Positions 7,673 through 58,995 of a stretch of DNA of 64,000 bases are shown piece after piece. The stretch comes from Thermomicrobiales bacterium. GTDB lineage: Bacteria > Chloroflexota > Chloroflexia > Thermomicrobiales > CADCWN01. The notes beneath the pieces were generated by a model that had not been told where the DNA came from, made no database searches, and saw only the letters and a program-made list of their open reading frames with translations. How positions within the stretch are numbered: the stretch's first letter is position 1; every line of letters starts with the position of its first letter. The stretch spans positions 140,878-204,877 of the forward strand of contig JAUJMV010000002.1 of NCBI GenBank assembly GCA_030446685.1, read 5' to 3'. Both the position numbers and the translations under genes were made by a program.

Positions 7673-7769
7673 GAATGACGAAGTGACGAAGTACGAGCGA
7701 CGAATCGGGAGGCTTGTGCCCGCCCGGCGGCGCAACCCTCTCGTGCGACGTTTGCTCGTCCTTCATTCG
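7673..7769. repeat. heptamer-array inverted repeat (weakest member), GACGAAG-like units
   Basis: gaatgacgaagtgacgaagtacgagcgacgaatcg at 7673-7707 versus tcgtgcgacgtttgctcgtccttcattcg at 7741-7769, between the DUF6285 stop and the phosphatase gene. Confidence 0.4.
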
Positions 7770-8206
7770 GCGCCCGGCGCCCGGCGCTCGTACTTCGCGA
7801 GTTGGCGCGGGTTCGAGACGCGCAGCTTCTCGGCGACGGACCAGCGGGCGTAGTCGAGGACGTCGATGCGCCAGGGGCCGTCGTCGGCCTCGCCGGCGCG
7901 GATCGCCGCGCAGAGGGCGCGCTTGCGGGCGTCGATGTCGGCGCGCAACTCGTCGAGCGTGGCGGGCGGGGCGGCTTCCTCGCGCCCGCTCCCGCGATGC
8001 AGCGCGAGGAGGTGCCGCCACTCCGCGCGCAGGCGCCCCTCCTCGCCCGGCAGCTCGCGCTCCACGACGCCGAGGACGTTGGCGGCGATCAGCGCGCGGA
8101 ACCGCAGGCGCTGGTCGCCCAGGGTCGGCACGATCTCGCGCTGGAGGAACTCGCGCACGGCGGCGAGCAATTCGGTCGCGGTCGGTCGGTCCTGCATGGG
8201 CGTCAC
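7763..8206 (-). CDS. DUF6285-like protein (usual partner of phosphotransferase/acyl-CoA dehydrogenase pairs)
   Basis: Intact 147-aa ORF, MTPMQDRPTATELLAAVREFLQREIVP...; family assignment is from memory. Confidence 0.55.
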   Translation of the reverse strand: MTPMQDRPTATELLAAVREFLQREIVPTLGDQRLRFRALIAANVLGVVERELPGEEGRLRAEWRHLLALHRGSGREEAAPPATLDELRADIDARKRALCAAIRAGEADDGPWRIDVLDYARWSVAEKLRVSNPRQLAKYERRAPGAE

Positions 8207-8295
8207 GGTGCCGGTCGGACGCCACTAGCGTTCATCACTGTCTCCTCCTGAGCCATATGGACCCCGAGAACTCATACTGATCAAGACTATCTGAG

Positions 8296-8620
8296 TCAAC
8301 CACGTTGATACCGGGCGCGACCATGTTCGCTATCATGCACCATCAGGATGACCTGCCCGATCGTGCCACCTGGGGCCGGTGCCAAGTCCAGGGCAAAGGT
8401 GGTCGCCCGCCCCGTCCTCGATAAGATCGAGGAGTTCGAGCAAGTCTTTCCACAGTTCCATCTCGCGGCAAGACTCAAACAGGCGAGGGAACTCCACAAT
8501 TTGCCCGTTGTGGATACGAGGACTCGCGGACATCTTTGGGGAAGGCAATGCCCAACGCCACCTCGGTCGCGCGTAACTCGTCCTCCGTTGCGCCCTGGCC
8601 GCCGAGGTGTGCGGCGTGCA
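8296..8620 (-). pseudogene. SMI1/KNR4 (SUKH-1)-like protein, multiply frameshifted
   Basis: Own translation gives MHAAHLGGQGATEDELRATEVALGIAFPKDVRE, then IHNGQIVEF...LIEDGAGDHLC, then LDLAPAPGGTIGQVILMVHDSE in three frames. Low-GC islet. Confidence 0.35.
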
Positions 8621-8626
8621 TAACCT

Positions 8627-9620
8627 TCAGCCCTGTATGAGATCAAGGAGCGCGCCGAGCGCCGACTGGCCGCTGATGGCGGCGGGCCTGGCCGAGCGCG
8701 CCGAGCGCCCCCATGTTGACCTCCCAGTAGAAGACGCGCGCGGGATCGACCCGGCGGCCGCTGGCGCGCTCGTAGGCGGCGTAGAAGGGCTCGCGCGGGC
8801 CGACGCCGCCGACCGGCAGGTCGTCCTGGCCGAAGCGCCAGGCGCGCACGCAGCACCAGGCGAGGTCGGCGTGCGGGTCGCCGAGGTGCGCGTTCTCCCA
8901 GTCGAGGACGCCGCGCAGCCCCTCCGGCCCGACCATGAAGTTGCCGACCCGGAAGTCGCCGTGGACCAGCACCGGCGCTTCCGGGAGCGGGCCGGTGGGC
9001 GCGCAGCCAGCGCAGGCCGAGTTCGAGCGCGGGGTGCGGCTCGTCGATGGCGCGCAGGTCGAGCTCCATGCGGGCGATCGCCGCCTCCTCGGCGGACTGG
9101 CCGGGCGCGGGGCGGTGGAGGGTTTCGAGGCCGTGGGTGGCCGGATCGACGCGGTGGATCGTGGCGAGGGCGTCGCCCAGTTGCTCCGGCAGGACGGCGC
9201 GCGCCCCGGCCAGCGCGGGGTCCTGCACGATCCGCCGCCCGATCGTCTCGCCGCTGAGCCGCTCCATCAGGAAGGCCGCGCGGCCGTTGCCGCTGAGGTC
9301 GGGCGCGAACCAGTAGGGGCGCGGCACGCGCACGCCCGCGGCATGGACGGCCCGCAGGACGGCGAACTCCTGGTCGCGGCCGATGACCGCGCTGCTGAGC
9401 GCGCCGCCCATGTCGCGGCGCAGCACCAGCGCGTGCCGCCCGGCGAACGGCCCCCGGCGATCTCGGCGTCGAGCGCCCACGCCTCCTGCGAGGCCCCGCC
9501 CGCGAGCGACCTCAGCCCGCTGACGCGGGCGGCGGCGCCGGCCTGCTCGGCGATGAACCGTTCGAGGTCGGCCCCGAGCCGCGCCACCGCCGCGGCGGGA
9601 TCGGTCGTCTGGTCCTGCAT
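8627..9620 (-). CDS. phosphotransferase (APH/choline-kinase fold) of the type linked to acyl-CoA dehydrogenases, at least 3 apparent frameshifts
   Basis: LVHGDFRVGNFMV (Brenner-type motif) and VLDWENAHLGDPHADLAW. The pieces lie in ORFs 9267..9695, 8296..9480 and 8643..8972. Confidence 0.7.
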
Positions 9621-10155: not shown

Positions 10156-10177
10156 CGTCGGCTCCCGCCCGCGGGGG

Positions 10178-10350
10178 GCCGACGACTGAAGTCGTCGCTG
10201 GGGGCTCGCAAGCTCGCCACGAAACCCGCCTCCGCGGGTTGGAACCGACCAGACGAAGTGCTTGCAGATGAGGCGGGAGCGTTTCGTCATCCAGTCCGCG
10301 GAGGCGGACTTTGTGGCCGCAGGCCCCCAGCGACGACTTCAGTCGTCGGC
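10178..10350. repeat. REP-like compound palindrome (two inverted ~60-65 nt arms)
   Basis: gccgacgactgaagtcgtcgctgggggc...ccacgaaacccgcctccgcgggttgg versus ccagtccgcggaggcggactttgtggccgc...cccccagcgacgacttcagtcgtcggc. Same family as the repeats flanking the Y1 transposase at 41127-41719. Confidence 0.8.
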
Positions 10351-10362
10351 ACCGCTGCTGAA

Positions 10363-11634
10363 TCAGTCTACCATCGTCGAGGCGACGTTCGGGCGCTCGA
10401 TCGGTGTCGTCACCTCGGCCACTTCGGGCGTGGTCGGCGCGATGCCCGCGGCCGGCTTAGCGGCGGCCTCGCGCAGGATGCGCTGGGCGATCACCATCCG
10501 GTGGACCTCGGACGGGCCGTCGTAGATGCGGAAGGGCCGGACGTTGCGGTAGAAGCTCGCCAGCGGCAGTTCGTTGGAGACGCCGTGGGAGCCGGTGATT
10601 TGGAGCGCGCGGTCCACCACGCGATCGACCGCCTCGGAGACGTAGGTCTTCGCCATCGAGGTCTCCTGGCGGGCCTGCCCGCCCCCGTCGATGACCCAGG
10701 CGGCGTGCCAGATCATCAGCCGCGAGGCGTGCAACTCCATCGCCGAGTCGGCGATCATCTGCTGCACCATCTGGTGCTGGCCGAGCGGCTTGCCGAAGCC
10801 CGCGCGCCCGTTGGCGTAGGTCGCGGCGATGTCGAGCGCGCGGGCGGCGACGCCGAGCCAGCGCATGCAGTGCGTCAGCCGCGCCGGGGCGAGCCGGACC
10901 TGGGCGTATTTGAACCCCTCGCCGACCGCGCCGAGGACCGCGTCCTGGCCCACCGCGCAGTCGCGGAACTCGACCTCGCAGTGCCCGCCCGCGAAGCCGG
11001 CGTCGAGCAGGGGATCTGCCGGACGATGCGGAAGCCGGGGTTGTCGGCGTCGACCAGGAACATCGTCGCGCCGCCGCGCCCGTCGATCCGCTCGCCGGTG
11101 ACGGCCATGCAGATCGTGAAGGCGCAGCCGTCGGCCCCGCTGATGTACCACTTGTCGCCGTTGATGACCCAGTCGTCGCCGCGCCGCTCGGCGCGGGTGC
11201 GCAGCATCGAGGGGTCGGAGCCGGCGCCGGGGCGGTTCGGTCATCGAGAAGGAGCTTCGCACCCGGCCCTCGACCAGCGGGCGCAGGTACTGCTCCTGCT
11301 GCGCCGCGGTCCCGACGACCGCCAGCAGGTGCATGTTGCCCTCGTCGGGCGCGGCGCAGTTGAGGGCCAGCGGTCCGATCAGGCTGCGCCCGGCCTCCTC
11401 GAAGACAATGCTCATCTCGCGCATGTTCAGCCCGAGCCCGCCCCATTCTTTCGGGACGTGCGGCGCGTAGATGCCGGCCGACCGCGCCCTCGCCCGCAGC
11501 GCGTCGAGCCGGTCCTGGGGCAGCCCGTCGTGGTCGTCCACGAACGGCTCCTGTGGGATCACCTCGTTCTCCACGAACGCGCGCGCGCGGTCGCGCAACT
11601 CGGCCAATTCCGGCGGCAGCGTGAAGTCGATCAT
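10363..11634 (-). CDS. acyl-CoA dehydrogenase, two apparent frameshifts
   Basis: MIDFTLPPELAELRDRARAFVENEVIP..., DDWVINGDKWYISGA (ORF 10875..11207), and a C-terminal IYDGPSEVHRMVIAQRIL. AAGGAG lies upstream of the ATG at 11634. Confidence 0.8.
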   Translation of the reverse strand: MIDFTLPPELAELRDRARAFVENEVIPQEPFVDDHDGLPQDRLDALRARARSAGIYAPHVPKEWGGLGLNMREMSIVFEEAGRSLIGPLALNCAAPDEGNMHLLAVVGTAAQQEQYLRPLVEGRVRSSFSMTEPPRRRLRPLDAAHPRRAARRRLGHQRRQVVHQRGRRLRLHDLHGRHRRADRRARRRDDVPGRRRQPRLPHRPADPLLDAGFAGGHCEVEFRDCAVGQDAVLGAVGEGFKYAQVRLAPARLTHCMRWLGVAARALDIAATYANGRAGFGKPLGQHQMVQQMIADSAMELHASRLMIWHAAWVIDGGGQARQETSMAKTYVSEAVDRVVDRALQITGSHGVSNELPLASFYRNVRPFRIYDGPSEVHRMVIAQRILREAAAKPAAGIAPTTPEVAEVTTPIERPNVASTMVD

Positions 11635-11647
11635 CCATCGCTCCTTT

Positions 11648-11744
11648 GCGAGTGCTTGCGAGTGCTGAGTGTCTATCGGTTGGCCGTGGGGGTACGGCAT
11701 TCGACAGCGGCCCGGCTCAGCACTCGGCACTCAGCACTCAGCGC
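11648..11744. repeat. heptamer-array hairpin, unit GAGTGCT
   Basis: gcgagtgcttgcgagtgctgagtgtc at 11648-11673 versus gctcagcactcggcactcagcactcagcgc at 11715-11744. It starts 2 nt after the SDR stop and ends about 13 nt before the ACAD start. Confidence 0.8.
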
Positions 11745-11745
11745 T

Positions 11746-12520
11746 TCACCCCAGGCGGCCGGCCATGTGGCCGCCATCGATCGGGAAGGCGACGCCGCTG
11801 ATGAAGGCCGCCTCGTCGGAGGCGAGGTAGAGGGCGGCGTTGGCGACGTCCTCCGGGGTGCCGAGGCGGCCGAGCGGGATGTCGCGGCGCAGGCGCGCGG
11901 CGCCCTCCTCCGGCGTGGCGCGCGACCCGGCGATGAAGGCGTCGACCATCGGCGTCTGGGTCCAGACCGGGCAGAGGGCGTTGGCCCGGATGTTGAAGCG
12001 CGCGCCCTCCAGGGCCAGCGTCTGCGCCAGTTGGATCGCCCCGGCCTTCGACGGCCCGTAGGCGCCGAGCAGCGGCGTGCCCTGCAAGCCGGCGACCGAG
12101 GCGCTGATCAGGATGCTGCCGCCGCCCCCGCCGCAGCGCGCCGAAGGCGTGCTTGGCGCAGAGGAAGGGGCCGGTCAGGTTGACGGCCAGCACCCGCTCC
12201 CAGTCCTCCCTGGCGAGGTTGGCGAGCAGGCCCGGGGCGCCGATGCCGGCGTTGGCGACCATGATGTCGAGCTTGCCCCAGCGTTCCAGCGCCTCGGCCA
12301 CCGCGCCGGCGCAGTCGTCCTCGTCCGTCACGTCGACGCGGCGGAAGGCGGCGCGCTCCCCGCCGATCGCCGCGACCGTCTCGCGCCCGCCGGCCTCGTT
12401 CACGTCGGTCGCCAGCACCGCCGCGCCCTCCGCCGCGAACCGGGCCGCCATCGCCCGCCCCAGCCCCGAGCCCGCCCCGGTGATGACCGCGGCCTTGCCT
12501 TCCAGTCGAGCCATGCTCAC
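11746..12520 (-). CDS. SDR family oxidoreductase (3-oxoacyl-ACP reductase-like), one apparent frameshift near 12110
   Basis: GKAAVITGAGSGLGRA (TGxxxGxG) and YGPSKAGAIQL (YxxxK). Confidence 0.8.
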
Positions 12521-12540: not shown

Positions 12541-12620
12541 CCACAGAGGACACAGAGATCACGGAGAACGAAGGAAAAACGAGAATATCGCGATCTCTGT
12601 GTCCTCTGCGCCCTCTGCGG
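12541..12620. repeat. heptamer-like hairpin, units CAGAGGA/CACAGAG
   Basis: cagaggacacagagatc at 12544-12560 pairs perfectly with gatctctgtgtcctctg at 12592-12608, and a further ccctctg unit follows. Lies between the QOR stop and the SDR start. Confidence 0.75.
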
Positions 12621-14099: not shown

Positions 14100-14165
14100 C
14101 GCCTGGTGGTCTCCGCTTCGACCGTTGGCCGTTCACCAGGCCGTCGCGCCGCCTTGAGCACCTGG
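14100..14165. repeat. degraded duplicate of the SDR (14606-15384) 3' end plus its adjacent repeat arm
   Basis: ccgttcaccaggccgtcgcgccgcc...gcacctggcc matches 14600-14650 (gcgttcaccaggccgtcgcgccgcc...gcacctggcc). Confidence 0.6.
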
Positions 14166-14396
14166 CCTGACGCCACAATCGGCCGGCGGAACGGTTCGTT
14201 TCGCGCTTTCGCGGCCGGATCGCGCCGGTAATCGCGCGGGCGGCGCGCGACGACCGCTCTGCGCGTGCCGACCGGGATCGGCCACCCGGCCCTTCGAGCG
14301 GACGGTGCCGGCCGGCGCGGGATCCCGCGCGACGGGGCGCGCGACGGTTCGCGGCGGTGACGACCGCCGCGCGCGCGATCACCTGGCGGCAATCGG

Positions 14397-14564
14397 TTAC
14401 CCCATCTTCGCAATGAAGTCGAGAGACGCTCGCGGGCTGCGCGTAGTTGCCCTTCGAGCCTCCGTGACATCGGCGGTGCGATCATGCGGCGATTGCACCA
14501 ACCGGATCACGCGCAGTGCGTATGCCTTCGTCCTCCGTTGCAGATCGCCGTTGCTCGCCGACAT
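14397..14564 (-). pseudogene. four-helix-bundle protein (23S rRNA intervening-sequence protein family) remnant
   Basis: Own translation gives MSASNGDLQRRTKAYALRVIRLVQSPHDRTADV...RASLDFIAKMG*. It matches the remembered family pattern ...ERTKxFALRIIRLVxSLPK...GANYRAAxRARSxADFIxKMGI. Internal deletion or frameshift and a 3' truncation. Confidence 0.55.
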
Positions 14565-14582
14565 CGCGCTTGCACCGCCCCT

Positions 14583-14610
14583 GTTCCGCGTTCGCCGTTC
14601 CGCGTTCACC
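14583..14610. repeat. single heptamer array, unit GAACGCG (as gttccgc on the plus strand)
   Basis: gttccgc gttcgcc gttccgc gttcacc. Overlaps the stop codon of the SDR at 14606 and lies 19 nt from the four-helix-bundle remnant start. Confidence 0.7.
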
Positions 14611-15384
14611 AGGCCGTCGCGCCGCCGTCCACCACCAGCACCTGGCCGGTGACGTAGCTGGCGGCGGCGGAGGCGAGGAAGAGGGCCGCGCCCTTCAGTT
14701 CGCCGGGGCGGCCGAGGCGGCCGAGCGGCACGTCGGTCTGCATCTTCTCCTCGCTGCGGCCGATCACCGCCTCGGTCATGCGGCTGGGGAAGAAGCCGGG
14801 CGCGATCGCGTTGACGCGGATGTTGTGGCCCGCCCACTCGGTGGCGAGCTGGCGGGTGAGGGCGATCACCGCGCCCTTCGAGGCGTGGTAGCCGGCGGCG
14901 CGCAGCACCTGGGGCGGGGCGCCGAAGAGGCCGGCGACCGACGCGGTGTTGACGATCGCGCCGCCGGTTCCCCGCGCGATCATCTGGCGCGCGGCGGCCT
15001 GCGACACCAGGAAGGTGCCGGTGGCGTTGGTGTCGACCACCTGGCGGAAGCGCTCGACCGGCATCTCCTCGGCGGGCGCCCCCAGGAGACGCCGGCGTTG
15101 TTGACGACGACGTCGAGCGCGCCGTGCCGCGCCACGATGCCGTCGATCAGCGCGCCGACCGCCGCCGGGTCGGTCACGTCGCAGACGGCGGCCTCGACCG
15201 CCAACCCGGCCCCGCGCAGCCCCTCCTCCGCCGGGCCGAGCCACTGCTCGCGCCGCGCGGTGATGATGACCGTCGCCCCCGCCTCGCCCAGCCCCTCGGC
15301 GATCTCCAGCCCCAGCCCGCGCGAGCCCCCGGTGACCAGCGCCACCTTCCCGCGTAGGTCGAACAGCTCTCTGACGTGCGGCAT
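14606..15384 (-). CDS. SDR family oxidoreductase (gluconate-5-dehydrogenase-like), one apparent frameshift near 15095
   Basis: GKVALVTGGSRGLGLEIA and YHASKGAVIALTRQLA. Pieces in ORFs 14980..15429 and 14606..15448. Confidence 0.8.
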
Positions 15385-16866: not shown

Positions 16867-18117
16867 TCACCCCTTGGCCCGCGGCCCTCGGCCCTGGCGC
16901 CGCGCCCGCCGCTCCACGGCGTACTCCCGCCCGCGCCAGTGGATCGGCTCGCCGCGGGCGCGGCGCCAGGTCGTCACGACCGCCGCCGAGCCGAGCACGG
17001 CCGCGCCGGCCGGGAAGAGCGCGACCTCCGACGGCGCCTGGCGCAGCTCCCGCCCGACCAGGGCGCGGATCGCCAGCAGCGCCGCCACCTGCCCCGCCGC
17101 CAGCCGCCGGGGGCCGCCGCGCGCGAGGCGCCAAGCCAGCAGCGCGAACGGCCCGACGAAGAAGAGGAGCGTCAGCGCGCCGACCCCGAAGACGTAGGGG
17201 GGCGCGAGCCGGCTCCCCGCCTGCAGGCTGCGGATGAAGCCGCGCCAGGCGTCCCCGAAGCCATCATACATCCGGCAGGCCGTCCAGTCGCCCCCGTCGA
17301 GCAGCAGCAGGTCCGCGCCCGCCCGCTTGCAGGCCCGCCCGAGCGCCATGTCCTCCATCAGTTGGTCGCGCACCGCGGCGTGGCCGCCGACGCGCGCGTA
17401 GAGATCGCGCCGGATCAGCAGGAACTGCCCGTTGGCGAAGGCGAAGAGGCGGAAGCGCGCCCCTTCGAGCAGCGGGATCGGTTGCAGCGCCAGCAGGAGG
17501 AAGAAGAGGTGCGGCACCAGCAGCCGCTCGCCGAGCGTCACCGCCCGCTCGCGCGGCAGGGTCGTCAGCACCGCTGCGCCGCGCCCGAGGGCCGCGCCGA
17601 CCGTCGCGCGCAGCATCGCCGGCGCGTGGGTCGTGTCGGCGTCCACGAAGAGGAGCCAGTCCCCCGTCGCCGCCTCGGCCAGTTGCTGGCAGGCGTGGGC
17701 CTTGCCGCCCCAGCCCGGCGGCGGCTCCGCGCCGCGCAGGGGGCGCAGCCGGGGGTGCCGCGCCGCCAGCGCCGCGACGATCGCCCCGGTCCCGTCGGTC
17801 GAGCGGTCGTCCAGCACCAGCACCTCGAACGCCCCGCCCGGATAGTCCTGGGCGACCAGCGACTCGACGCAGGCGGCGATCTTCGCCGCCTCGTCCCGCG
17901 CCGGGACCAGGATCGACACGCGCGGGGGCGGCGCGGGCAGCGGGTGCCGCTCCCGGCCCCGCCGCCGCAGGAGCAGCAGGTTGAGGCCGCTGATCGCGGC
18001 CATCGCCGCGAGCAGGAGGGTGTTGAAGGACTGGTAGAGGGCGAGCGGGGAGCGATTGCGGATTGCGGATTGCGGGTTGCGGATCGAGGCACGAGCGGTG
18101 CGGCGGGCCGCGCCCAT
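16867..18117 (-). CDS. family 2 glycosyltransferase (carotenoid glycosyltransferase-like), start uncertain
   Basis: SILVPARDEAAKIAACVESL...VLDDRSTDGT...LFVDADT with an N-terminal TM helix. The first plausible ATG (18117) lies in the spacer of the 18054-18184 hairpin. Confidence 0.75.
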   Translation of the reverse strand: MGAARRTARASIRNPQSAIRNRSPLALYQSFNTLLLAAMAAISGLNLLLLRRRGRERHPLPAPPPRVSILVPARDEAAKIAACVESLVAQDYPGGAFEVLVLDDRSTDGTGAIVAALAARHPRLRPLRGAEPPPGWGGKAHACQQLAEAATGDWLLFVDADTTHAPAMLRATVGAALGRGAAVLTTLPRERAVTLGERLLVPHLFFLLLALQPIPLLEGARFRLFAFANGQFLLIRRDLYARVGGHAAVRDQLMEDMALGRACKRAGADLLLLDGGDWTACRMYDGFGDAWRGFIRSLQAGSRLAPPYVFGVGALTLLFFVGPFALLAWRLARGGPRRLAAGQVAALLAIRALVGRELRQAPSEVALFPAGAAVLGSAAVVTTWRRARGEPIHWRGREYAVERRARRQGRGPRAKG

Positions 18118-18184
18118 CGGTTTCTCGGAAGCGTCGTCTTTCCGCCTCTTCCAATCCGCAATCCGCAATCCGCAATCCGCAATC
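18054..18184. repeat. heptamer-array hairpin, unit GATTGCG x5 per arm, 62-nt spacer
   Basis: gattgcg x3 + ggttgcg + gatcgag at 18054-18088 versus ccaatc + cgcaatc x4 at 18151-18184. The right arm ends 2 nt from the crtI stop codon. Confidence 0.9.
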
Positions 18185-18185
18185 C

Positions 18186-19661
18186 TCATTTGAGGAGGTC
18201 CTCCAGCACCAGCTCCGCGGTGATCTCGCCGGAGAGGAGGACCAGCGGGATGCCGCCGCCCGGCTGGGCGCTGCCGCCGGCGAAGTAGAGGCCGCGGACC
18301 TCCTCCGAGCGGTTCGGCGGGTGGAAGAAGGTGCTCTGCGACCACTTGCCGGAGAGGCCGAAGATCGAGCCGAGGTTGTTGTGGTGGCGCTCGGCGAAGT
18401 CGAGCGGCGTCCAGCGTTCCTCGACCACGATGCGCTCCGCGAGGTCGGCCAGGCCGAGGTCCCGCACCCTGGCGATCAGCAGATCGCGGTAGGCGTCCCC
18501 CTCGCGCGCCCAGTCGAAGGCGGGCGTGATGTGGGGGACCGGGGCGAGGACGTAGAGGGCGGACGAGCCGGGCGGGGCGAGCGCGGGGTCGGTGCGCGCG
18601 AAGTCGCCGATGTAGATCGTCGGGTCGGCGGGCGGGCGCTTCTCCCCGAAGATGCGCGCCATCTCGCCGGCGTAGTCGGCCGGGAAGAAGACGTTGTGGT
18701 GCTCCAGGCCCGGATAGACGCGGTCGACGCCGAGGTAGAGGATGAAGGCCGACGACGACGGCTCGTAGCGCGCCAGCCGCGCGTCGGTGTAGCGGCGGCG
18801 CCAGCGCGGGTGGACGAGGTCGCGGTAGGTGTGGACGAGGTCGGCGTTGGAGACGACCGCGTCGGCGGGGATGAACTCGTCGTCGGCCAGGATCACGCCG
18901 CGCGCCCCGTCGCGCCCGACCGCGATCTCCTTCACCGGCGCGCTGTAGCGGATGGCGACGCCGCGCCGCACGGCCAGCGCCGCCAGTTCCTCGGCGATCG
19001 CGTGCAGGCCGCGCCCGCCGCGCGCGAACCAGACGCCGTAGACGAACTCCAGGTAGGGGATCGCGGCGTAGGCGGCCGGGACCTGGGTGGGGGGGGTGCC
19101 GACGTAGATCGACTTGAAGGTCATGATGTGGCGCAGGTGGGGGTCGCGGAAGTAACGGCGCATCCGCCCGTCGAGCGAGCGGATCACGTCGAGCGTTAGG
19201 CCGGCGCGGGCGACGCGCGGGGTGAACATCTGGCGCGGGCCGTTGAACGAGCGGCGGAAGAAGTAGGCCATCAACTCGTCATAGATGCGCTCCGAGCGGG
19301 CCAGGAAGGCGAGGAAGCCGGCCACGTCGCGCGGCTCGAGCGCGGCGATCTGGGCGACGTTCCGGCGCAGGTCGGTGCCGAGCCGCAGCTCGACCCCATC
19401 TCGGAAGGCGAAGCGGAAGGCCGGCTCGCACGGCACCAGCTCGAGGTGGTCCGCCAGGCACTCGCCCGACTCGCGGAAGAGGTCTTCCAGCAGGTGGGGC
19501 AGGGTGAAGATGGTCGGCCCGGTGTCGAAGCGGAAGCCGCCGCGTTCGAGCGTGCCGAGCTTGCCGCCCGGCCGCGCGCCGCCCTCGACGATCGTCACCG
19601 CGCAGCCGGCGTTCGCCAGCCGGATCGCGGCGGAGAGCCCGCCGAGCCCGGCGCCGATCAC
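18186..19661 (-). CDS. crtI: phytoene desaturase family FAD oxidoreductase; annotated GTG start leaves a very short N-terminus
   Basis: (V)IGAGLGGLSAAIRLA dinucleotide fold; C-terminal YFAGGSAQPGGGIPLV. In-frame upstream codons read RTVVV, so the true start is unclear. Confidence 0.85.
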   Translation of the reverse strand: MIGAGLGGLSAAIRLANAGCAVTIVEGGARPGGKLGTLERGGFRFDTGPTIFTLPHLLEDLFRESGECLADHLELVPCEPAFRFAFRDGVELRLGTDLRRNVAQIAALEPRDVAGFLAFLARSERIYDELMAYFFRRSFNGPRQMFTPRVARAGLTLDVIRSLDGRMRRYFRDPHLRHIMTFKSIYVGTPPTQVPAAYAAIPYLEFVYGVWFARGGRGLHAIAEELAALAVRRGVAIRYSAPVKEIAVGRDGARGVILADDEFIPADAVVSNADLVHTYRDLVHPRWRRRYTDARLARYEPSSSAFILYLGVDRVYPGLEHHNVFFPADYAGEMARIFGEKRPPADPTIYIGDFARTDPALAPPGSSALYVLAPVPHITPAFDWAREGDAYRDLLIARVRDLGLADLAERIVVEERWTPLDFAERHHNNLGSIFGLSGKWSQSTFFHPPNRSEEVRGLYFAGGSAQPGGGIPLVLLSGEITAELVLEDLLK

Positions 19662-19694
19662 GACGACGGTGCGGCCCTGTCGAGCGCGCCGGGT

Positions 19695-19892
19695 GAACGC
19701 GGAACGCGGAACGCGGAACGCGGAATAACGTTGGCGGAATCAGGAGCAGACATCGGGGGAATGGTCATGCTCTTCCATCACTACTCGGCCTCGCAGCTTG
19801 TCCGCATAATGTGTCGCCAGGGAACTCTTGCGCTTATCCCCAAGTGTTCCCCAGCCCTTCGTTCCGCGTTCCGCGTTCCGCGTTCCGCGTTC
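19695..19892. repeat. heptamer-array hairpin, unit GAACGCG x4-5 per arm, 128-nt spacer
   Basis: gaacgcg x4 + gaataac at 19695-19729 versus cttcgttc + cgcgttc x4 at 19858-19892. The left arm is 34 nt upstream of the crtI start and the right arm lies inside the 3' end of the UbiA-like ORF. Confidence 0.9.
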
Positions 19893-20806: not shown

Positions 20807-21033
20807 GCCCCGCCTTTACCCCGAATACCGCCGGTCACCGGCCGGCCACGACCCCGCCGCCCCCGCTGGCGGGCGGCGACGGCTCCGGCAATTGTACCAG
20901 TTACGCGGGTGGTGACGGCCCCGCTCCGCAACTTCGGGGGTGAGGGCTGGGGGGCGCCGCCATTCGCGCCGTCTGCGCCCGGTGGCGGGGAGGGTATGGA
21001 CGATCTGCTGGCCGTTGAGCAACGGCACGATCG

Positions 21034-21144: not shown

Positions 21145-21216
21145 AGGGGGTGCCTCGCCCTCCGCGCAAACTGCTGCTGAACCTGTTTCGCCGGGATGGC
21201 GGAGGGGCGGCCCTCG

Positions 21217-39817: not shown

Positions 39818-39827
39818 CGACTGGACA
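39807..39827. repeat. single heptamer array, unit CTGACGA
   Basis: ctgacga ctgacga ctggaca, immediately upstream of the DUF58 copy 2 start. Positionally homologous to the right arm at 36954-36976. Confidence 0.5.
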
Positions 39828-47999: not shown

Positions 48000-49616
48000 T
48001 CAGGAGCCTGCTCGCGGAGGCCCCGCCGCGACCTCGCCGGGGACAACCTCCCAGATTCCCGCCGTTTCTTGAGCGGTGAGACTCTGCCAGTCCCGCCCGG
48101 CGGCGCGCAGGCGGTCCTCGGCGGCCTTGAAGCGCGCGGCGAGGGCGGCGAGGGTTGTGTTGAGCGCGGTCTCGGGGTCGAGGCCGGCCTTGTCGGCCAG
48201 GCCGGCGAGCGCGAGGAGGGCCGCGCCGAGGGCCGGGCCGAGTTCCTGGTCGGTCGCGCCGGCGCGCAGGGCGGCGCGGGCGCGGTCGAGGTCGGCGGCG
48301 AAGGCGGCGGCGGGGCGGCGCTCCGGCAAGAGGCGGTCGACGCGGTGCAGGATCAGCGCGGCACGGGCGAGGGCGGGGAGGGCGCGCGGCACGCCGTCGA
48401 GCGCGGAGGGCGTGGGCTTGTCGGCGCGCTCCCCCTTGGCGCGGCGCTCGGCCTCCTTGATCTGGTCCCAGTTGCGCAGCACCGCCCCGGCGTCGGCCGC
48501 GACCACGTCGCCGAAGACGTGCGGGTGGCGGCGCACCAGCTTCGCGGCGATCGCCTCGTAGACGTCCTCCAGGGTGAACTCGCCCGCCTCCTCGGCCATC
48601 TGCGACTGGAGGTAGACCTGGAGGAGCACGTCGCCCAACTCCTCGCGGAAGGCGTCCATGTCGCCCGCGTCGAGCGCGTCGAGCGCCTCGTAGGTCTCCT
48701 CCAGGAAGTTGGCGCGGATGCTCTGGTGGGTCTGCTCGCGGTCCCAGGGGCAGCCGTCCGGCGCGCGCAGGCGGGCGGTGATCGCCTGGAGCCCCTGCGC
48801 CACGCGGGTCGCCTCTTCCGGCGGCAGCGCGGGGACGAAGAGGCTGGTGAGGTGGTCGGGCGCCCCGGCCTCGGCCCGGTCGAGCGCGTGCAGCGGGACG
48901 GCGCGCGCCTCCTCCACCCCGGCGACGCCGGCCGCGCGCAGGACGGTCACCGGGTGCGCGTCGGGGTAGAGGCGCATCAGGGCCAGCTTGACCGCCGAGG
49001 CGATCCGCGCGTTGTAAACCTGCCCCACCAGCGCCGGGCGCAGCGGCGAGAGGGGCCAGCGCCCGCCGCTGAACGGCTCGGCCTCCAGCACCGCCGCCAG
49101 TTCGAGCCCGTCCACCAGTTGCAACCCTTCCCCGAGCGGGTCGAGCGGCAGCGCCGCGGCCGCCACGTCCACGAAGCTGAGGCCGGGGACGATCCGCAGG
49201 CCCACGCCCCGCGCGGGTGCGGCCTCGCGCAGCCGGGCGACGGTGCTCTCGCCGATCAGCGGGTGCCCCGGCACGGCGTAGACGATCGGGCCGTCCGCGG
49301 CGGCCGCCGCGCCCAGGAGTTCGTCGACGATGGCCGCGTAGAGCGCCTCGAAGTCGCCCGCCCGCTCGTAGAGCGCGTCGAAGCTCGCCCAGCCCGCGAC
49401 CGCGAACGACCCATCTGCTTGCGCCGCCAGCGCCTCGACCGTCGGGTGGACGCGCGTGCGGAGGTGGACCGGGCGCCCGCTCGCCAGCCAGCCGGCCGCG
49501 TCCCGCGTCAGCAGGCCGGGATCGCCGGGGCCGAGGCCGACGACGATGATGCTGTGGGCGGTGGGCGGTGGGCCATGGGCGGCAGGCGATTCGGTCGCGG
49601 TGTCTGGCTGGCTCAT
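48000..49616 (-). CDS. tetrapyrrole-methylase-like / MazG nucleotide pyrophosphohydrolase fusion (YabN-like)
   Basis: IIVVGLGPGDPGLLT at the N-terminus. MazG repeats CPWDREQTHQSIRANFLEETYEALDAL and REELGDVLLQV. Start at the internal ATG 49616 of ORF 48000..50030. Confidence 0.8.
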   Translation of the reverse strand: MSQPDTATESPAAHGPPPTAHSIIVVGLGPGDPGLLTRDAAGWLASGRPVHLRTRVHPTVEALAAQADGSFAVAGWASFDALYERAGDFEALYAAIVDELLGAAAAADGPIVYAVPGHPLIGESTVARLREAAPARGVGLRIVPGLSFVDVAAAALPLDPLGEGLQLVDGLELAAVLEAEPFSGGRWPLSPLRPALVGQVYNARIASAVKLALMRLYPDAHPVTVLRAAGVAGVEEARAVPLHALDRAEAGAPDHLTSLFVPALPPEEATRVAQGLQAITARLRAPDGCPWDREQTHQSIRANFLEETYEALDALDAGDMDAFREELGDVLLQVYLQSQMAEEAGEFTLEDVYEAIAAKLVRRHPHVFGDVVAADAGAVLRNWDQIKEAERRAKGERADKPTPSALDGVPRALPALARAALILHRVDRLLPERRPAAAFAADLDRARAALRAGATDQELGPALGAALLALAGLADKAGLDPETALNTTLAALAARFKAAEDRLRAAGRDWQSLTAQETAGIWEVVPGEVAAGPPRAGS

Positions 49617-49692
49617 CGTTGACCGGCACTCCCGAGTTCGGCCTTCGGCCCTCTGTCTTTCGCCCGCCGCCCACGGCCCACGGCCCGCGCCG

Positions 49693-50889
49693 TCATTGCG
49701 CCGGCGCGGCCGGCAGGCCCAGGTCCGGGCTGATCGTGATCGGGTACTTGTCGCGCAGGCCCTCGACCCACCCCTGGCGCAGCAGGCCGAGTTCCTGCTC
49801 GTTCGGGGCGCGGCGCTCGACCCTGGCGACCCGGAAGAAGCGGTAGAAGGTCTCGCCGCGGTTGCCCTGCACCGACTGGATTTCACTGTACGCGCCCTCC
49901 TGGAGCGACGGGAAGAGGGTGCGCAACTCCGGCGAGATGGCCTCCGCCGGGACGGTGCCGGCGGTGACCACCTGCTCGTTCCTGAAAGCCTCCAGCGCGT
50001 ACTGCTGGACGATCTCGCTGAACGGCACACCGCCCTGGGCCCTGTCGAGCGCCTCCTGCGCCCGCTCCCGCCGGTCGGTGATCACCTGCTGCAGGGTGAC
50101 GGCGGTGATCTGGTCGGGGGCGTAGAGCGGGCGCAGGCGCTCGGCCAGCAACTGGTCGCGCACGCGGTCGCGATAGGCCCCGCCGCTGATGACCCCGTTG
50201 CTGCTGAGGTCGCGCTCGAAGCTGTCGTCCGCGCTGGAGTTCGCGCCGGCCAGTTGCTCGGCGACCGCCCGCAGCGTCGGCGCGAGGTCGCCCGGCGGCA
50301 CGGTCACGCCCCTGGCGGCCAGCGCCGCGGCCAGCGCGGCCGCGCGGTCCCGCACCAGGCCGTCCGGCACGTCGCGCGTGACGACCTGGCCGCGCCCCTC
50401 GAGCGCCGCCTGCAGCCGCTCGATCTCGGCGCGGACGAGCGCGCGCAGATCGTTGTCCGGCAGCCCGCCCCCGCCGCGCGCGTTGACGATCGGGCGGAGC
50501 TGCTGGGTCGCGCCCGCCGCCAACTGGTCGAGGCCCTGCTGCCGCTGCTGGGCGAAGCCCTGGGCGAACTGCGCCCGCTCCGCCTCCATCCGCGCCCGGA
50601 TCTCCGCGTCGGAGATGGTAATACCGCGCCCGCGCGCTTCGAGCTGGATCAGCCGGTTGTCGATCATCCGCTGCAGCCACTCGGCCTTCACGTCGCGGCG
50701 GGCAGTCTCGCCGGCGCTGTCCCAGCGCGCCGGCCCGATCTGCTCGCGCAGCTTGGCGATCTCGGCGTTGAACTCGCCGACCGTGATCCGCTCGCTCCCC
50801 ACCGTCGCCGCGGTGTCGGTCGTATAACTACACGCGCCGAGCGCGAGAGCGATGAGCAGGAGGAACGCGGAGGCGAATCGAGTAGGCAA
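49693..50889 (-). CDS. SurA-N/PpiC-like periplasmic chaperone lipoprotein, TTG start inferred
   Basis: (L->M)PTRFASAFLLLIALALGACS lipobox after the AAGGGAGA RBS. ITVGEFNAEIAKL... resembles a SurA N-terminal region. The functional call is weak. Confidence 0.5.
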   Translation of the reverse strand: MPTRFASAFLLLIALALGACSYTTDTAATVGSERITVGEFNAEIAKLREQIGPARWDSAGETARRDVKAEWLQRMIDNRLIQLEARGRGITISDAEIRARMEAERAQFAQGFAQQRQQGLDQLAAGATQQLRPIVNARGGGGLPDNDLRALVRAEIERLQAALEGRGQVVTRDVPDGLVRDRAAALAAALAARGVTVPPGDLAPTLRAVAEQLAGANSSADDSFERDLSSNGVISGGAYRDRVRDQLLAERLRPLYAPDQITAVTLQQVITDRRERAQEALDRAQGGVPFSEIVQQYALEAFRNEQVVTAGTVPAEAISPELRTLFPSLQEGAYSEIQSVQGNRGETFYRFFRVARVERRAPNEQELGLLRQGWVEGLRDKYPITISPDLGLPAAPAQ

Positions 50890-50902: not shown

Positions 50903-51028
50903 GTCGAAGGTCCGAAGGTCGAAGGTCGAAGGTCAGTGACCTGTGCAATACGATGCGTCTTCGGTAGACAATGAGGCGCGGGCAGCGACCCTGACTTTCG
51001 ACCTTCGACCTTCAGACCTTCGACCCTC
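50903..51028. repeat. heptamer-array hairpin, unit GAAGGTC, 52-nt spacer
   Basis: gtcgaag gtccgaag gtcgaag gtcgaag gtcagtg at 50903-50940 versus gactttc gaccttc gaccttc agaccttc gaccctc at 50993-51028. Lies 5 nt after the lepA stop and about 14 nt before the next start. Confidence 0.9.
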
Positions 51029-51032
51029 CTCG

Positions 51033-52883
<1,851 letters not shown>

Positions 52884-56729: not shown

Positions 56730-57677
56730 ATGACGCGCCAGGTCTGGACGTTCAGCTCGCCGCTCGAGGACCCGCGCTTCGCGTGGCTGGACAAGCTGGC
56801 CGAGCCGCTGCAACAGGCCGCGCACGACGCCTTCGCGGGCGATGCCGGCAAGACGGTCAAGAACTGGCTGAATGGCGTGCCGATCCGCCACCGGGTCCAC
56901 CCGGCGCTGATCATCTGGCCGCTCGGGGCCTGGACGACGGCGGCGCTGCTCGATCTGCTCGATGGCGTCTCCCCCGGTGGGAACAGCAACGGCTACCGGA
57001 AGGGGGCCGACGCGGCGGTCGCGTTCGGGATCATCGGCGCGCTGCCGACCGCCGCCGCCGGGGTGGCCGACTGGGTCGACACCTACGCGCACGAGCGGCG
57101 GGTCGGGATGGCGCACGCCCTGCTCAACGTCGCCGCGCTGGGCCTCTACGGGGCGTCGTTCGGCCTGCGCCTGGCCGGGCAGCGCGGGATGGCGCGGGCG
57201 CTGGCGGGGCTGGGCTTCGGCGGCATCATGATGAGCGGCGTCCTCGGCGGCGAGCTCGTCTACAACCTCGGCGTCAATGTCCCGCACCAGACCACGCCGG
57301 AGCCGCCGGACGAGTTCGTCGACGTCCTCGCCGGCGCCGATCTGCCCGAGGGCAAGCCGGTCGTCGTCGACGTCGAGAAGGCCCCAATCCTGCTGCTGCG
57401 GCGCGGGGAGGAGATCTTCGCGGTCGAGAACTGGTGCCAGCACGCCGGCGGCCCCCTCTCCGAGGGCGAGATCGAGGGCGACGAGGTCGTCTGTCCCTGG
57501 CACGGATCGCGCTTCTGCCTCGCCGACGGCCGGCCGCTCAATGGCCCGGCGTCGGCGCCGTTGCGCACCTTCGAGGTGCGCGAGCAGGGCGGGCGGATCG
57601 CGCTGCGCCCGAGCTATGAGGGCCGCGCGCACCCGTCGGTCTCGGAGCAGTCGGAGTCGGTCGCCGCCGGCGGATAG
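56730..57677 (+). CDS. DUF2231-like membrane domain fused to a Rieske [2Fe-2S] domain
   Basis: CQHAGGPL...CPWHGSRF (CxH...CxxH), N-terminal TM helices, GGGAGG RBS. Confidence 0.8.
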   Translation: MTRQVWTFSSPLEDPRFAWLDKLAEPLQQAAHDAFAGDAGKTVKNWLNGVPIRHRVHPALIIWPLGAWTTAALLDLLDGVSPGGNSNGYRKGADAAVAFGIIGALPTAAAGVADWVDTYAHERRVGMAHALLNVAALGLYGASFGLRLAGQRGMARALAGLGFGGIMMSGVLGGELVYNLGVNVPHQTTPEPPDEFVDVLAGADLPEGKPVVVDVEKAPILLLRRGEEIFAVENWCQHAGGPLSEGEIEGDEVVCPWHGSRFCLADGRPLNGPASAPLRTFEVREQGGRIALRPSYEGRAHPSVSEQSESVAAGG

Positions 57678-57938
57678 CGCCGTACGTGCGTGACCGGGGC
57701 GGGGGCAGGGACGAGGACGCGGGGCGACAAGCTCCACGCCCTCGTCCCTATCTGTGCGGAGGGAGCGCCCTCGCCGGACAGTCCTGGCGTCCGCTGTGTA
57801 TAATGTTCCCATCGCGCCGCGTGGCCGTGACCGCTGGTGTCTACTCGCCACCGCCGCGATCTGTCGAGCACGGGCCGGGGGCCGGCAGCCGCCGATACGG
57901 CGACGCCGCCACGCGGGATGCAGGAAAGGATCGCCGCC

Positions 57939-58886
57939 ATGCACGTCGCCCACCTCCCCTACGCCTACTTCGAGGGCCGGATCGTGCCGCTCGAGGAGGC
58001 CAAGGTCAGCGTCGCCACCCACGCGCTGCAGTACGGCACCGGGGTCTTCGGCGGCATCCGCGGCTACCTCGACCAGGACGGCAGCACGATCAACATCTTC
58101 CGCCTGCGCGACCACTTCACGCGCTTCGCGCAGTCGGCCGGGCTGATCAAGATCGGCCTGCCGCTCGACCTCGACGGCCTCTGCGACCTGGCGGTCGAGC
58201 TGACGCGCAAGAACCGCCCCACCGGCAACGTCTACTTCCGCCCCTTCGCCTACAAGGCGGGGCTCGACCTCGGCCCGACCCTGACCGGCGTGGACGACGG
58301 CTTCACCGTCTACATGCTGCCGCTCGGCGACTACTACGCCGCGCCGAACGGCCTCTCGGTGATGGTGTCGTCCTGGCAGCGGATCAGCGACAACGCGATC
58401 CCGGCGCGCGGCAAGGTCTCCGGGGCCTACATCAACTCCTCGATCACCAAGGATGAGGCGCAGGGCTACGGCTTCGACGAGGCGATCCTGCTCAACACGC
58501 GCGGCAAGGTCAGCGAGGGGAGCGCCTGCAACCTGATGCTGGTCCGCAACGGCCGGCTGATCACCCCGCCGGTCACCGCCGACATCCTCGAGGGGATCAC
58601 CCGGCGCTCGGTGCTCCAACTGGCGGACGACCTGGGCATCCCGGTCGAGGAGCGCGAGGTGGACCGCACCGAGCTGTACGTCGCCGACGAGCTCTTCTTC
58701 TGCGGCACCGGCGTCCAGGTGACCTGGATCGGCCAGGTCGACAAGCGCCCGGTCGGCGACGGACGCCCCGGCCCGATCACCACGCAGTTGCAGGGTCGCT
58801 TCTTCGACATCGTGCAAGGCCGGGCGCCGGAGTACGCCGACTGGCTGACGCGCGTGGCGATCCCGGCGGCGGTCGCGGCGGACTAG
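57939..58886 (+). CDS. ilvE: branched-chain amino acid aminotransferase (fold type IV)
   Basis: ALQYGTGVFGGIRGY, RGKVSGAYINSSITKDEA and EGSACNLMLV. Confidence 0.85.
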   Translation: MHVAHLPYAYFEGRIVPLEEAKVSVATHALQYGTGVFGGIRGYLDQDGSTINIFRLRDHFTRFAQSAGLIKIGLPLDLDGLCDLAVELTRKNRPTGNVYFRPFAYKAGLDLGPTLTGVDDGFTVYMLPLGDYYAAPNGLSVMVSSWQRISDNAIPARGKVSGAYINSSITKDEAQGYGFDEAILLNTRGKVSEGSACNLMLVRNGRLITPPVTADILEGITRRSVLQLADDLGIPVEEREVDRTELYVADELFFCGTGVQVTWIGQVDKRPVGDGRPGPITTQLQGRFFDIVQGRAPEYADWLTRVAIPAAVAAD

Positions 58887-58888
58887 GC

Positions 58889-58995
58889 GGGGTCGAAGGT
58901 TGAAGGTTCGGGGTTGAAGGTTACCGTCGGTACGCGGGACTCCTCCTTCACCCAGACCCGGCAACTTTCAACCTTGAACCTTCAACCTTCAACCC
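58889..58995. repeat. heptamer-array hairpin, unit GAAGGTT, 34-nt spacer
   Basis: ggtcgaa ggttgaa ggttcgg ggttgaa ggttacc versus ggcaact ttcaacc ttgaacc ttcaacc ttcaacc. Starts 3 nt after the ilvE stop and ends 17 nt before the next start. Confidence 0.9.

Follow-up and report, generated by a model that had tools for sequence, protein, structure and literature searches.

The 64,000-nt stretch of a Thermomicrobiales genome analysed here (contig JAUJMV010000002.1, positions 140,878 to 204,877 of the forward strand, hereafter the window) carries, between co-oriented genes, a series of hairpins whose arms are built from short tandem repeats, mostly of 7 nt, the second arm being the inverted counterpart of the first. 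An earlier reading of the letters, made without database searches (the sequence-only reading), had listed ten such loci, each with a unit of its own. In following it up we accepted eight inverted pairs (B, C, D, E, F, H, I and J; Table 1), and three conclusions about them are well supported: the hairpins are local, vertically inherited stem-loops with repeat-built arms and not copies of a dispersed family; they evolve by slippage together with concerted, compensatory change; and their anchor point is the 3' end of the upstream cistron, within operons. Our overall reading, held with evenly balanced confidence, is that these are slippage-built, arm-copied stems that would be kept as intercistronic punctuation of the mRNA, a function that we infer from the sequences.

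The window has a G+C content of 72.4%. Tandem Repeats Finder recovered period-7 arrays where the sequence-only reading had placed them, and 13 period-7 runs were observed in the 64 kb; 100 dinucleotide shuffles gave 0.56 on average and never more than 4. Arrays of at least three tandem 7-nt copies are thus in excess over chance and over the other non-triplet periods, as in the heptanucleotide class of long simple sequence repeats (LSSRs). Periods 4, 5, 8, 10 and 11 were at background in the period scan of the window; periods 6, 9 and 12, triplet multiples, were mildly raised, as coding DNA would give. The 80 LepA-centred loci from other phyla (1.39 Mb), used solely as a negative control, held 12 period-7 runs. 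Two of the arrays recur base for base in independent short-read contigs from other samples, L083 matching the 3' arm at 50903, its irregular 8-mer included, and L088 the 5' arm at 18152, so the arrays are not assembly artefacts (numbers from L081 to L106 denote loci or contigs of related genomes; L026, L057 and L060 are unrelated control loci). Several short-read contigs (L082, L083 and L088) stop inside arrays, as repeats tend to cause.

The RNA fold of the transcribed strand of each locus was compared with 200 shuffles. The eight accepted pairs have z-scores from -3.4 to -8.8, stems of 20-38 bp and loops of 25-136 nt, and consist of one unit in two nearby intergenic arrays on opposite strands; in fold energy the sense and antisense strands are about equal. 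Of the ten listed loci, seven are among these pairs, whereas the weak loci at 7673 and 36890 fold no better than their shuffles. The locus at 14583, listed as one arm only, is indeed a single array, with no inverted partner within 1.5 kb, and that at 12541 is a good hairpin, but with a period of 8-9 and not 7. Missing from the list were the pair 49551-49589 / 49660-49692 (z -5.4) and, at 39806-39823, a single array for which an inverted partner was sought and not found. The claim that each locus has its own unit holds for the most part, except that GAACGCG is common to 14583 and 19695 and that the units at 50903, 58889 and 7673 are near-identical.

The junction between lepA and the gene for a SurA-like protein (locus I) has a repeat-armed hairpin at the equivalent place in three other genomes, whose SurA-like proteins are 97%, 69% and 66% identical to that of the window. 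The unit is GTCGAAG in the window and in L083, GTCGAAC in L081 and GTCGCAG in L082, and an irregular 8-mer in second position (GTCTGAAG, GTCTGAAC, GTCTGCAG) is kept throughout, with the opposite arm altered to match. Counted over the 18 outer pairs in the window, L081 and L082, 54 of 54 cells are standard pairs, that is, the three genomes are 100% paired. Four pairs are altered on both sides, at the same unit positions in two successive units, and the one-sided changes in the outer stem (n=5) are all G.U in the sense strand, with no A.C. These pairing values were reached by only 3 of 500 shuffles, and the slid controls all dropped to 26-43% paired. The loops measure 54, 34 and 14 nt; neither their length nor their sequence is conserved, and it is the helix that is. 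Compensatory changes in orthologues, by which a structured cis-regulatory mRNA element is recognised, are therefore present at this junction.

A second orthologous series lies between crtI and the gene for a GT2 glycosyltransferase (locus D). Relatives whose CrtI is 81-86% identical all carry the stem or its 5' array, which in about ten related genomes starts at the crtI stop codon or at most ~40 nt from it; in the complete junctions, 10-50 nt separate the end of the 3' arm from the conserved YQ codons of the GT2 motif PLALYQ. The arm unit is TGCGGAT in the window, TGCGGRA in L087 (contig ending inside the junction), TGACGAA in L084 and GTACGAA in L089, L100 and L106; it is G-rich and GGCGGGG-like in L091, while L092, L098, L099, L101 and L102 have 8-9-mers of AGTGGGC type (the L102 contig also ends inside the junction), and L097 has an aperiodic 28-bp stem. 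The heptamers can be chained by steps of one to three bases; the arrays are therefore homologous, evolving in concert and not invented independently, and the stem has been retained despite complete turnover of the arm sequence. Close strains show the copy-number polymorphism of slippage-prone LSSRs: L092, L098 and L099 differ by one unit gained in the 5' arm, and L089 and L106 by unit variants. In distant relatives (48-51% CrtI identity) crtI and GT2 overlap by 4 or 26 nt, which makes the hairpin an insertion into a formerly tight junction. The turnover of units at orthologous junctions, which the sequence-only reading had proposed to look for, was thus seen at both places, but its constant period was not, as one and the same junction has arms of period 7, of period 8-9 or aperiodic ones among relatives.

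The stem begins 0-10 nt past the upstream stop codon in six of the eight pairs (B, D, F, H, I and J). This had been stated of every complete pair; at C, however, the 5' arm begins ~24 nt past the stop, and at E, in the assembly, the UbiA frame runs on through the arm. The other arm had been placed 10-35 nt before the downstream start, which is true only of B, C, I and J, where it ends just ahead of a Shine-Dalgarno sequence and start codon; at D, F and H the 3' arm is read as coding, and the start is found between the arms or inside one. That all pairs stand between co-oriented genes is correct yet uninformative, most junctions in the window being co-oriented anyway. In transcript sense the 5' arm has more G than C in 10/10 window loci, with genes on either DNA strand, and this G-rich-first polarity is kept in the repeat-armed orthologues and in unpaired arrays (14583 in the window, 3751-3806 in L084), the sole exception being the aperiodic stem of L097. 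The element is therefore tied to the direction of transcription. As a speculation, the polarity may stem from seeding by the stop-codon heptamer, a T followed by purines, or it may reflect the avoidance of a C-rich arm exposed before its partner exists.

The two arms mirror each other, irregular units included, such that F, H, I and J have a single best register (in one example 32/34 matches, against 19/27 for the neighbouring registers). Pairing in several registers, as had been suggested for the arrays in general, is possible only in the perfect arrays D and E. Mirrored irregular units call for arm-to-arm copying or strong selection for a continuous helix, independent slippage being insufficient.

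Upstream of ubiA, at 20891-20900 on the minus strand, there is an extended -10 box (CTGGTACAAT) that is conserved in five genomes; CTGGTACAAT is kept in L098, L101 and L106, and L097 has CTGCTACAAT. It is likely, to judge from its sequence, to be the promoter of a carotenoid-type operon ubiA-crtI-GT2, and its conservation in front of ubiA places loci D and E inside one operon. A stem of at least 20 bp within a predicted operon, the prerequisite for a hairpin that is an RNase III substrate or an exonuclease barrier, is therefore present.

A mechanism can be proposed in which a local heptamer, often the one that holds the upstream stop codon, would be amplified by replication slippage, and the arms would be kept as mirror copies by template switching in the hairpin or by gene conversion, by selection for pairing, or by both. 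A substitution in a unit would spread along one array and then be matched in the other arm, such that unit sequence, copy number and even period could drift with helix and position unchanged. In a polycistronic mRNA this would leave a stable helix directly 3' of the stop codon of the upstream cistron, where it might act as a barrier to 3' exonucleases, as a substrate of RNase III, or as a partial terminator or modulator of termination. The expression levels of the neighbouring cistrons would then be uncoupled, as they are by the hairpins of repetitive extragenic palindromes and bacterial interspersed mosaic elements (REP/BIME) between malE and malF. The helix would accordingly be retained for some role in the mRNA, and because the most regular feature is the position right after the upstream stop codon, we favour operon punctuation centred on the upstream cistron. 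By analogy, the junction of locus F, between the genes of a solute-binding protein and a permease, is the classic place for a differential-expression hairpin, malE-malF being the paradigm site. A more far-reaching version, which we regard as rather doubtful, would make these self-renewing intercistronic RNA structures, in which slippage and arm copying regenerate a stop-anchored stem and the purine- or G-rich arm comes first under a co-transcriptional constraint; one such constraint, and this is speculation, might be that a C-rich arm resembling a Rho-loading site is never exposed before its partner exists.

Several observations weigh against mRNA punctuation. The downstream start codon has no fixed position: it follows the stem at some loci and at others sits in the loop or is paired in the stem. 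Arm mismatches, almost all of them transitions, are roughly balanced between G.U and A.C (15:8 in the window set, 16:14 in the crtI-GT2 orthologues) and thus bear no general signature of selection on the sense RNA, although the lepA junction does show one. An RNA function does not need the perfect pairing over ~30 bp that several stems have, and such perfection fits homogenisation at the DNA level. Most relatives have no hairpin at the ubiA-crtI junction but a mini-ORF (open reading frame) of 50-55 aa instead, and array density is uneven, with none in 16.5 kb of L097 and none in 21 kb of L101 against 13 in the 64 kb of the window.

Some of these facts are also what the main rival would lead one to expect. 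It holds that the hairpins are a non-adaptive by-product of a heptamer slippage bias and palindrome-correcting template switching, and that they survive where they are tolerated, in intergenic DNA and in dispensable N- or C-terminal tails; we consider it unlikely, but not so unlikely that it can be passed over. Heptanucleotide simple sequence repeats (SSRs) are over-represented in many unrelated bacteria, which PMC4679880, in its account of Mrazek (2007), ascribes to polymerase slippage. Sporadic inverted heptamer arrays occur in the acidobacterial L057 and the Oscillospiraceae L060, arrays intrude into coding tails, with locus E breaking the crtI frame as assembled, hairpins have been gained or lost at ubiA-crtI, and the density of arrays differs greatly among relatives, just as the near-perfect stems and the balance of G.U and A.C mismatches would fit. 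A mere by-product, however, does not readily explain why about ten genomes keep the crtI-GT2 stem even where its periodicity has been lost (L097) or has become 8-9 nt, why the lepA junction is 100% paired with one-sided changes of G.U type only, or why arm polarity strictly follows the direction of transcription. Bacterial DNA does not normally keep long perfect palindromes stably, and neutral ones should often be lost.

A function at the level of DNA, through cruciform extrusion, a protein that reads tandem half-sites, or sites of recombination or inversion, seems improbable to us. Paired repeats of 7-9 nt in Geobacter metallireducens were read as regulator sites (PMC2700814), the mismatch statistics are symmetric between strands, and the contig L088 of a near-identical strain diverges exactly at the array of locus E. 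However, the unit differs at almost every locus and among orthologues, and since no sequence is common to the loci, binding of a protein to a recognition sequence is unlikely; the spacers, at 25-136 bp, are short for site-specific inversion, no gene for a recombinase was noted alongside, and neither transcription polarity nor stop-codon anchoring is expected of a purely DNA element. Still more improbable is that the arrays are phase-variation switches, where one 7-nt unit gained or lost in a coding arm would shift the downstream frame on or off. The loop ATG of locus E is out of frame with crtI in such a way that unit number sets the frame, copy number at crtI-GT2 differs among close strains, and heptamer SSRs control hmw in Haemophilus influenzae (PMC12721329, PMC8262952), but only four of the eight pairs have an arm in coding sequence, a frame switch needs no inverted partner, and the genes are housekeeping or biosynthetic ones and not surface antigens. 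The window also has other apparent frameshifts away from arrays, for which reason that of locus E may be an assembly indel or a pseudogene.

That the hairpins are copies or footprints of a mobile stem-loop (REP/BIME or MITE-like), as the sequence-only reading had allowed, or an artefact of assembly, is effectively refuted: they are extragenic and palindromic and several short-read contigs end inside arrays, but loops and arms are not shared, no target-site duplications or common termini were seen at the window loci, orthologous positions are conserved, and independent assemblies match base for base.

Known classes of element were compared with the hairpins as well. All-against-all comparison of the loops of ten window loci and two orthologues gave chance 7-8-mers only, a scan of the whole window with Rfam gave 0 matches above the gathering threshold, and a scan of the window for tRNA and tmRNA found nothing. 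As the loops share no sequence, the hairpins are not REP or MITE copies; the conserved multi-copy palindrome of REP/BIME, tagged with GTAG/CGTC, is missing, the arms differ, and for a MITE there is no shared core, the elements being orthologous and not inserted at new sites. A CRISPR array has 24-48 nt repeats and unique spacers, whereas these units are of 7 nt, contiguous and in inverted pairs. The statement that they are not REP, MITE or CRISPR was therefore correct. Intrinsic terminators were rejected on loops of 25-136 nt and on the sequence after the 3' arms, none of which is followed by a T-run, G-quadruplex elements on regularly spaced G3 tracts that only locus H has, and invertible promoters on spacers that are too short and the lack of a shared site. 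Occlusion of the start codon is not the common denominator either, because the position of the start relative to the stem varies widely.

The individual loci are given in Table 1. Flanking genes were identified by Pfam, and ordinary genes so identified stand on both sides of every locus; distances between arms, stops and starts come from three-frame reading, and the loci were annotated by hand, a GC3-based gene finder (third-position G+C) having covered ~72% of the window, partly owing to apparent frameshifts.

Table 1. Repeat arrays and hairpins of the window, with their genes, arm complementarity and fold z-scores (arms and fold tests in window coordinates; TRF, Tandem Repeats Finder).
Feature	Coordinates	Strand	Unit or arm	Setting	Arm complementarity	Fold z
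Locus A	7673-7769	-	weak period-8 array	not accepted as member		-0.12
Locus B, hairpin	11648	-		short-chain dehydrogenase to acyl-CoA dehydrogenase		-3.4
Locus B, 5' arm	11716-11744	-	TGAGTGC x3.9	1-3 nt past TGA stop 11746-11748 of short-chain dehydrogenase gene
Locus B, 3' arm	11646-11672	-		then AAGGAG and ATG 11632-11634 of acyl-CoA dehydrogenase gene
Locus C, hairpin	12541-12620	-	20-27 bp, period 8-9	zinc-type alcohol dehydrogenase to short-chain dehydrogenase		-6.5
Locus X, single array	14583-14610	-	GAACGCG type	overlaps TGA stop 14606-14608
Locus D, hairpin	18054	-		CrtI-type desaturase to GT2 glycosyltransferase	31 nt, 97% (18054/18154)	-8.3
Locus D, 5' arm	18152-18188	-	GGATTGC x4.7	abuts crtI stop TGA 18186-18188
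Locus D, 3' arm	18054-18084	-	GCAATCC type	within N-terminal coding region of GT2 glycosyltransferase
Locus E, hairpin	19695	-		UbiA prenyltransferase to CrtI	32 nt, 100% (19694/19862)	-8.8
Locus E, 5' arm	19860-19893	-	GAACGCG x4.7	as assembled, within 3' end of UbiA frame
Locus E, 3' arm	19694-19725	-	CGCGTTC type	between loop ATG and crtI body
Locus F, hairpin	30801	-		solute-binding protein to ABC permease	38 nt, 82% (30813/30916)	-5.5
Locus F, 5' arm	30904-30953	-	GTAGAGC / GTGGAGC	overlaps TAG stop 30950-30952 of solute-binding-protein gene
Locus F, 3' arm	30794-30850	-		within N-terminal coding region of ABC permease
Locus G	36890-36976	+	weak	not accepted as member		-0.69
Locus Y, single array	39806-39823	+	ACTGACG x2.6	holds upstream stop codon 39815-39817
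Locus H, hairpin	49551-49692	-		SurA-like protein to methylase/MazG		-5.4
Locus H, 5' arm	49660-49692	-	GGGCCGT / GGGCGGC	6 nt past SurA-like stop 49693-49695
Locus H, 3' arm	49551-49589	-		residues ~12-21 of methylase/MazG protein; ATG 49615-49617 in loop
Locus I, hairpin	50903	-		LepA to SurA-like protein	34 nt, 94% (50903/50991)	-6.9
Locus I, 5' arm	50991-51028	-	GGTCGAA x4, second unit irregular 8-mer	7-10 nt past lepA stop 51033-51035
Locus I, 3' arm	50903-50936	-		then AAGGGAG-N6-TTG, Shine-Dalgarno and TTG start 50887-50889 of SurA-like gene
Locus J, hairpin	58889	+		class IV aminotransferase to EamA-like protein	40 nt, 85% (58887/58959)	-6.9
Locus J, 5' arm	58887-58926	+	GGTTGAA type	0-3 nt past TAG stop 58884-58886 of class IV aminotransferase gene
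Locus J, 3' arm	58959-58998	+		then GGAG and ATG 59012 of EamA-like gene
Period-7 array (TRF)	18054-18084		GATTGCG x4.4
Period-7 array (TRF)	18152-18185		x4.9, 100% match
Period-7 array (TRF)	19695-19725		100% match
Period-7 array (TRF)	19860-19892		100% match
Period-7 array (TRF)	50903-50934
Period-7 array (TRF)	50993-51025
Period-7 array (TRF)	58962-58994

At locus D the stop heptamer TGAGGAT is effectively the 'unit zero' of the TGCGGAT array, and the ATG of GT2 (18115-18117) is in the loop with the conserved PLALYQ downstream of the 3' arm. In 5/5 relatives tested the GT2 frame is open from the start in the loop through the arm to PLALYQ, and none of the five has an alternative start along the way. 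At locus H the N-terminus of the methylase/MazG protein, M-x-x-P-D-x-A-T, is conserved in L081. The peptides that the sequence-only reading had dismissed as spurious are therefore partly real tails at D and H, since the 3' arms there lie between a start codon in the loop and conserved protein sequence. At locus F, where the ATG is in the inner stem, coding of the 3' arm was judged from the reading frame of the window only. At locus E, as assembled, the frames of the loop ATG and of the crtI body differ by one unit, and one unit added, or two removed, restores MSAPDSANVIPRSAF...RTVVVIGAGLGG.

The other junctions of the set were compared with relatives too. Between surA-like and methylase/MazG genes, L082 has GAGGGCG x3.3 right after the stop codon, where its contig ends, and L081 has a weak stem only. 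At the C-terminus of UbiA, L084 has a single GAACGCA at the matching place, plausibly, from its sequence, the seed of the locus E array. The mini-ORF of the relatives encodes a conserved single-pass membrane mini-protein of 50-55 aa between ubiA and crtI (9811-9975 in L084, 4668-4820 in L089, 2783-2944 in L091 and 560-727 in L092); the window has no such mini-protein there, and hairpin E sits in its place. Positions 1-280 of L088, whose CrtI is 100% identical, diverge completely from window 19710-19960, exactly at the locus E array, and at that breakpoint L088 has its own ATG and two degenerate heptamers only (ATCCGCG CTCCGCG), such that the array coincides with a rearrangement breakpoint or a chimera of contigs.

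Distant Chloroflexota relatives (58-63% GC) have arrays as well, six in 21 kb of L093 (58% GC) and four in 16 kb of L095, of period 7 and with locus-specific units; some form inverted pairs of the same polarity, with a composite pair after tatC. As to the lineage, a CrtI 82% identical to that of the window is annotated 'Chloroflexota bacterium'; the LepA matches listed come from Chloroflexi and Firmicutes, the best being 68% identical and Chloroflexi ranking best among them. An exact look-up of the LepA of the window gave no record. A metagenome scan with the SurA-like alignment gave degenerate-pattern matches only and no relatives. Outside the phylum, L060, the metagenome-assembled genome (MAG) of an Oscillospiraceae bacterium, has TTAGGAR right after lepA and again as an inverted pair 3 kb away (11804-11850, 14582-14723), and L057 (Terracidiphilus, acidobacterial) has a TGTCAGG / CCTGAAA pair at 5374-5451; since both carry inverted heptamer pairs, the architecture is not confined to Chloroflexota. 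In L084, at 3751-3806, AAGTACG x5 and GTCGAAG x4 (transcript sense) stand back to back after a SpoU methylase gene, without an inverted partner; this GTCGAAG is the unit of the lepA junction of the window, but at an unrelated junction in another genome.

The window also holds long hairpins that are not periodic. The one at 21024-21154, with 41-nt arms and a minimum free energy (MFE) of ~-107 kcal/mol, contains GTCATCCTGAGCG(N)AGCGAAGGATC; it follows the stop codon of the gene at 21217-22125 (minus strand), upstream of the ubiA promoter. Near-identical motifs occur in L060 and in L026, a Dehalococcoidia MAG, and it looks like a palindromic element common across phyla. Another, at 10175-10353, is a very long, intercistronic nested double hairpin that starts ~10 nt past the stop codon of an acyl-CoA dehydrogenase gene (10363); its outer arms measure 31 nt and are 97% complementary, its inner arms measure 28 nt, and the MFE is ~-131 kcal/mol. 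Next to the lone array at 14583 (window ~14130-14620), ~460 nt are flanked by a direct duplication of 18 nt, GCGACGGCCTGGTGAACG, which comes from the end of the short-chain dehydrogenase gene (C-terminus and stop codon); this stretch, which holds a truncated 55-aa ORF without a Pfam match, looks like an insertion or partial duplication. Apparent frameshifts or truncations, which are pseudogenes or assembly indels, affect the short-chain dehydrogenase gene at 11738-12520, split across two frames, the MoxR AAA_3 gene at 36426-36887, which ends after 91/131 profile positions, the N-terminus of a DUF58 gene at 39839-39950 and the start of crtI at 19661-19760, the last two being out of frame.

If functional, these hairpins would be a tractable example of operon punctuation in bacteria without classical REP families, and a case in which a mutational bias, heptamer slippage with palindrome correction, has been recruited to build and repair an RNA or DNA structure. 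Should they be self-renewing, Chloroflexota would build operon punctuation by mutation, with conserved structure and zero conservation of sequence over short evolutionary distances. The orthologous series, GTCGAAG / GTCGAAC / GTCGCAG at one junction and TGCGGAT / TGCGGAA / TGACGAA / GTACGAA / 8-9-mers / aperiodic at the other, might be used as a natural experiment on evolution that is both concerted and compensatory. If they have no function, they are still self-propagating palindromic simple-sequence repeats, with a rule of strand polarity that needs explanation. For the annotation of Chloroflexota MAGs the arrays matter in any case, as they break short-read contigs, can shift reading frames, and yield false 'peptides' next to real, hypervariable N- and C-terminal tails.

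Heptanucleotide repeats as such are familiar. According to PMC4679880, which reports the survey of Mrazek (2007), no long repeats are more over-represented than these in many prokaryotes, and polymerase slippage is blamed. The arrays of the window resemble LSSRs in the over-represented non-triplet period of 7, mainly non-coding position, slippage origin and diversity of units; the LSSRs of these surveys (PMC4679880; Huang and Mrazek, 2014, PMC4060949) are direct arrays, and an inverted partner of the same unit and a conserved helix are not in that description. Nearer in architecture are the GGGAATC heptamers of Xanthomonas, of which a genome has 70-75 inverted, convergent pairs (Rehm et al., 2015, PMC4692102). 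These are likewise intergenic tandem heptamers with nearby arrays on the opposite strand that could form stem-loops or cruciforms, and the single or paired type is preserved between related species while copy number varies (PMC4692102). Xanthomonas, however, uses one genome-wide, G-tract-rich unit that forms G-quadruplexes, whereas we count about ten units in 64 kb, mostly without G-quadruplex potential, locus H being the exception; stop anchoring, fixed polarity and compensatory turnover of units are not described for Xanthomonas (PMC4692102).

In Geobacter metallireducens, paired opposite-strand sites of tandem 7-9-nt repeats were read as binding sites of global regulators (Aklujkar et al., 2009, PMC2700814). 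They are similar in having three to five tandem copies, paired on opposite strands at variable distance (PMC2700814), and different in belonging to a few multi-copy classes with one consensus each, whereas here nearly every locus has its own unit. The TAACTGA heptamers of marine Beggiatoaceae form intergenic arrays placed with nucleotide precision relative to start codons (MacGregor, 2015, PMC4679880). Stop codons within their units give stops in three frames, as do units such as TGAGTGC, GTAGAGC, GGTTGAA and GAATGAC here, but theirs is one genome-wide unit, in direct arrays (with a single inverted case) just upstream of start codons (PMC4679880). The literature, including searches aimed at Chloroflexi, gave no description of locus-specific units, of stems conserved at orthologous junctions with complete turnover of the unit, or of stop-codon anchoring or fixed arm polarity.

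The functional analogue that we propose is the REP/BIME class of enterobacteria. Between malE and malF of Escherichia coli such a hairpin is a stabiliser and a barrier to exonucleases that leads to differential expression, and one close to a stop codon causes ribosomes to stall. Both kinds form stable hairpins that separate co-transcribed genes, one such place being downstream of the gene of a solute-binding protein. REP/BIME, however, are a conserved multi-copy family mobilised by REP-associated tyrosine transposases (RAYT), with imperfect palindromes of 20-40 bp and tiny loops (PMC3733652). The hairpins of the window have no sequence in common, and their arms are periodic and their loops large. 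The early mRNA of phage T7 has intercistronic RNase III sites with conserved internal loops and without periodic arms, unlike the window stems, which have periodic arms and are known only as predicted structures. The heptamer repeat that controls expression of hmw in Haemophilus influenzae (PMC12721329, PMC8262952) belongs to a 5' untranslated region targeted by RNase III (PMC12721329). Common to T7, hmw and the window are double-stranded stems of at least 20 bp between cistrons or beside a heptamer SSR, and in the known systems processing sets expression. The building blocks of the window hairpins are thus ordinary; it is their evolutionary behaviour that is unusual.

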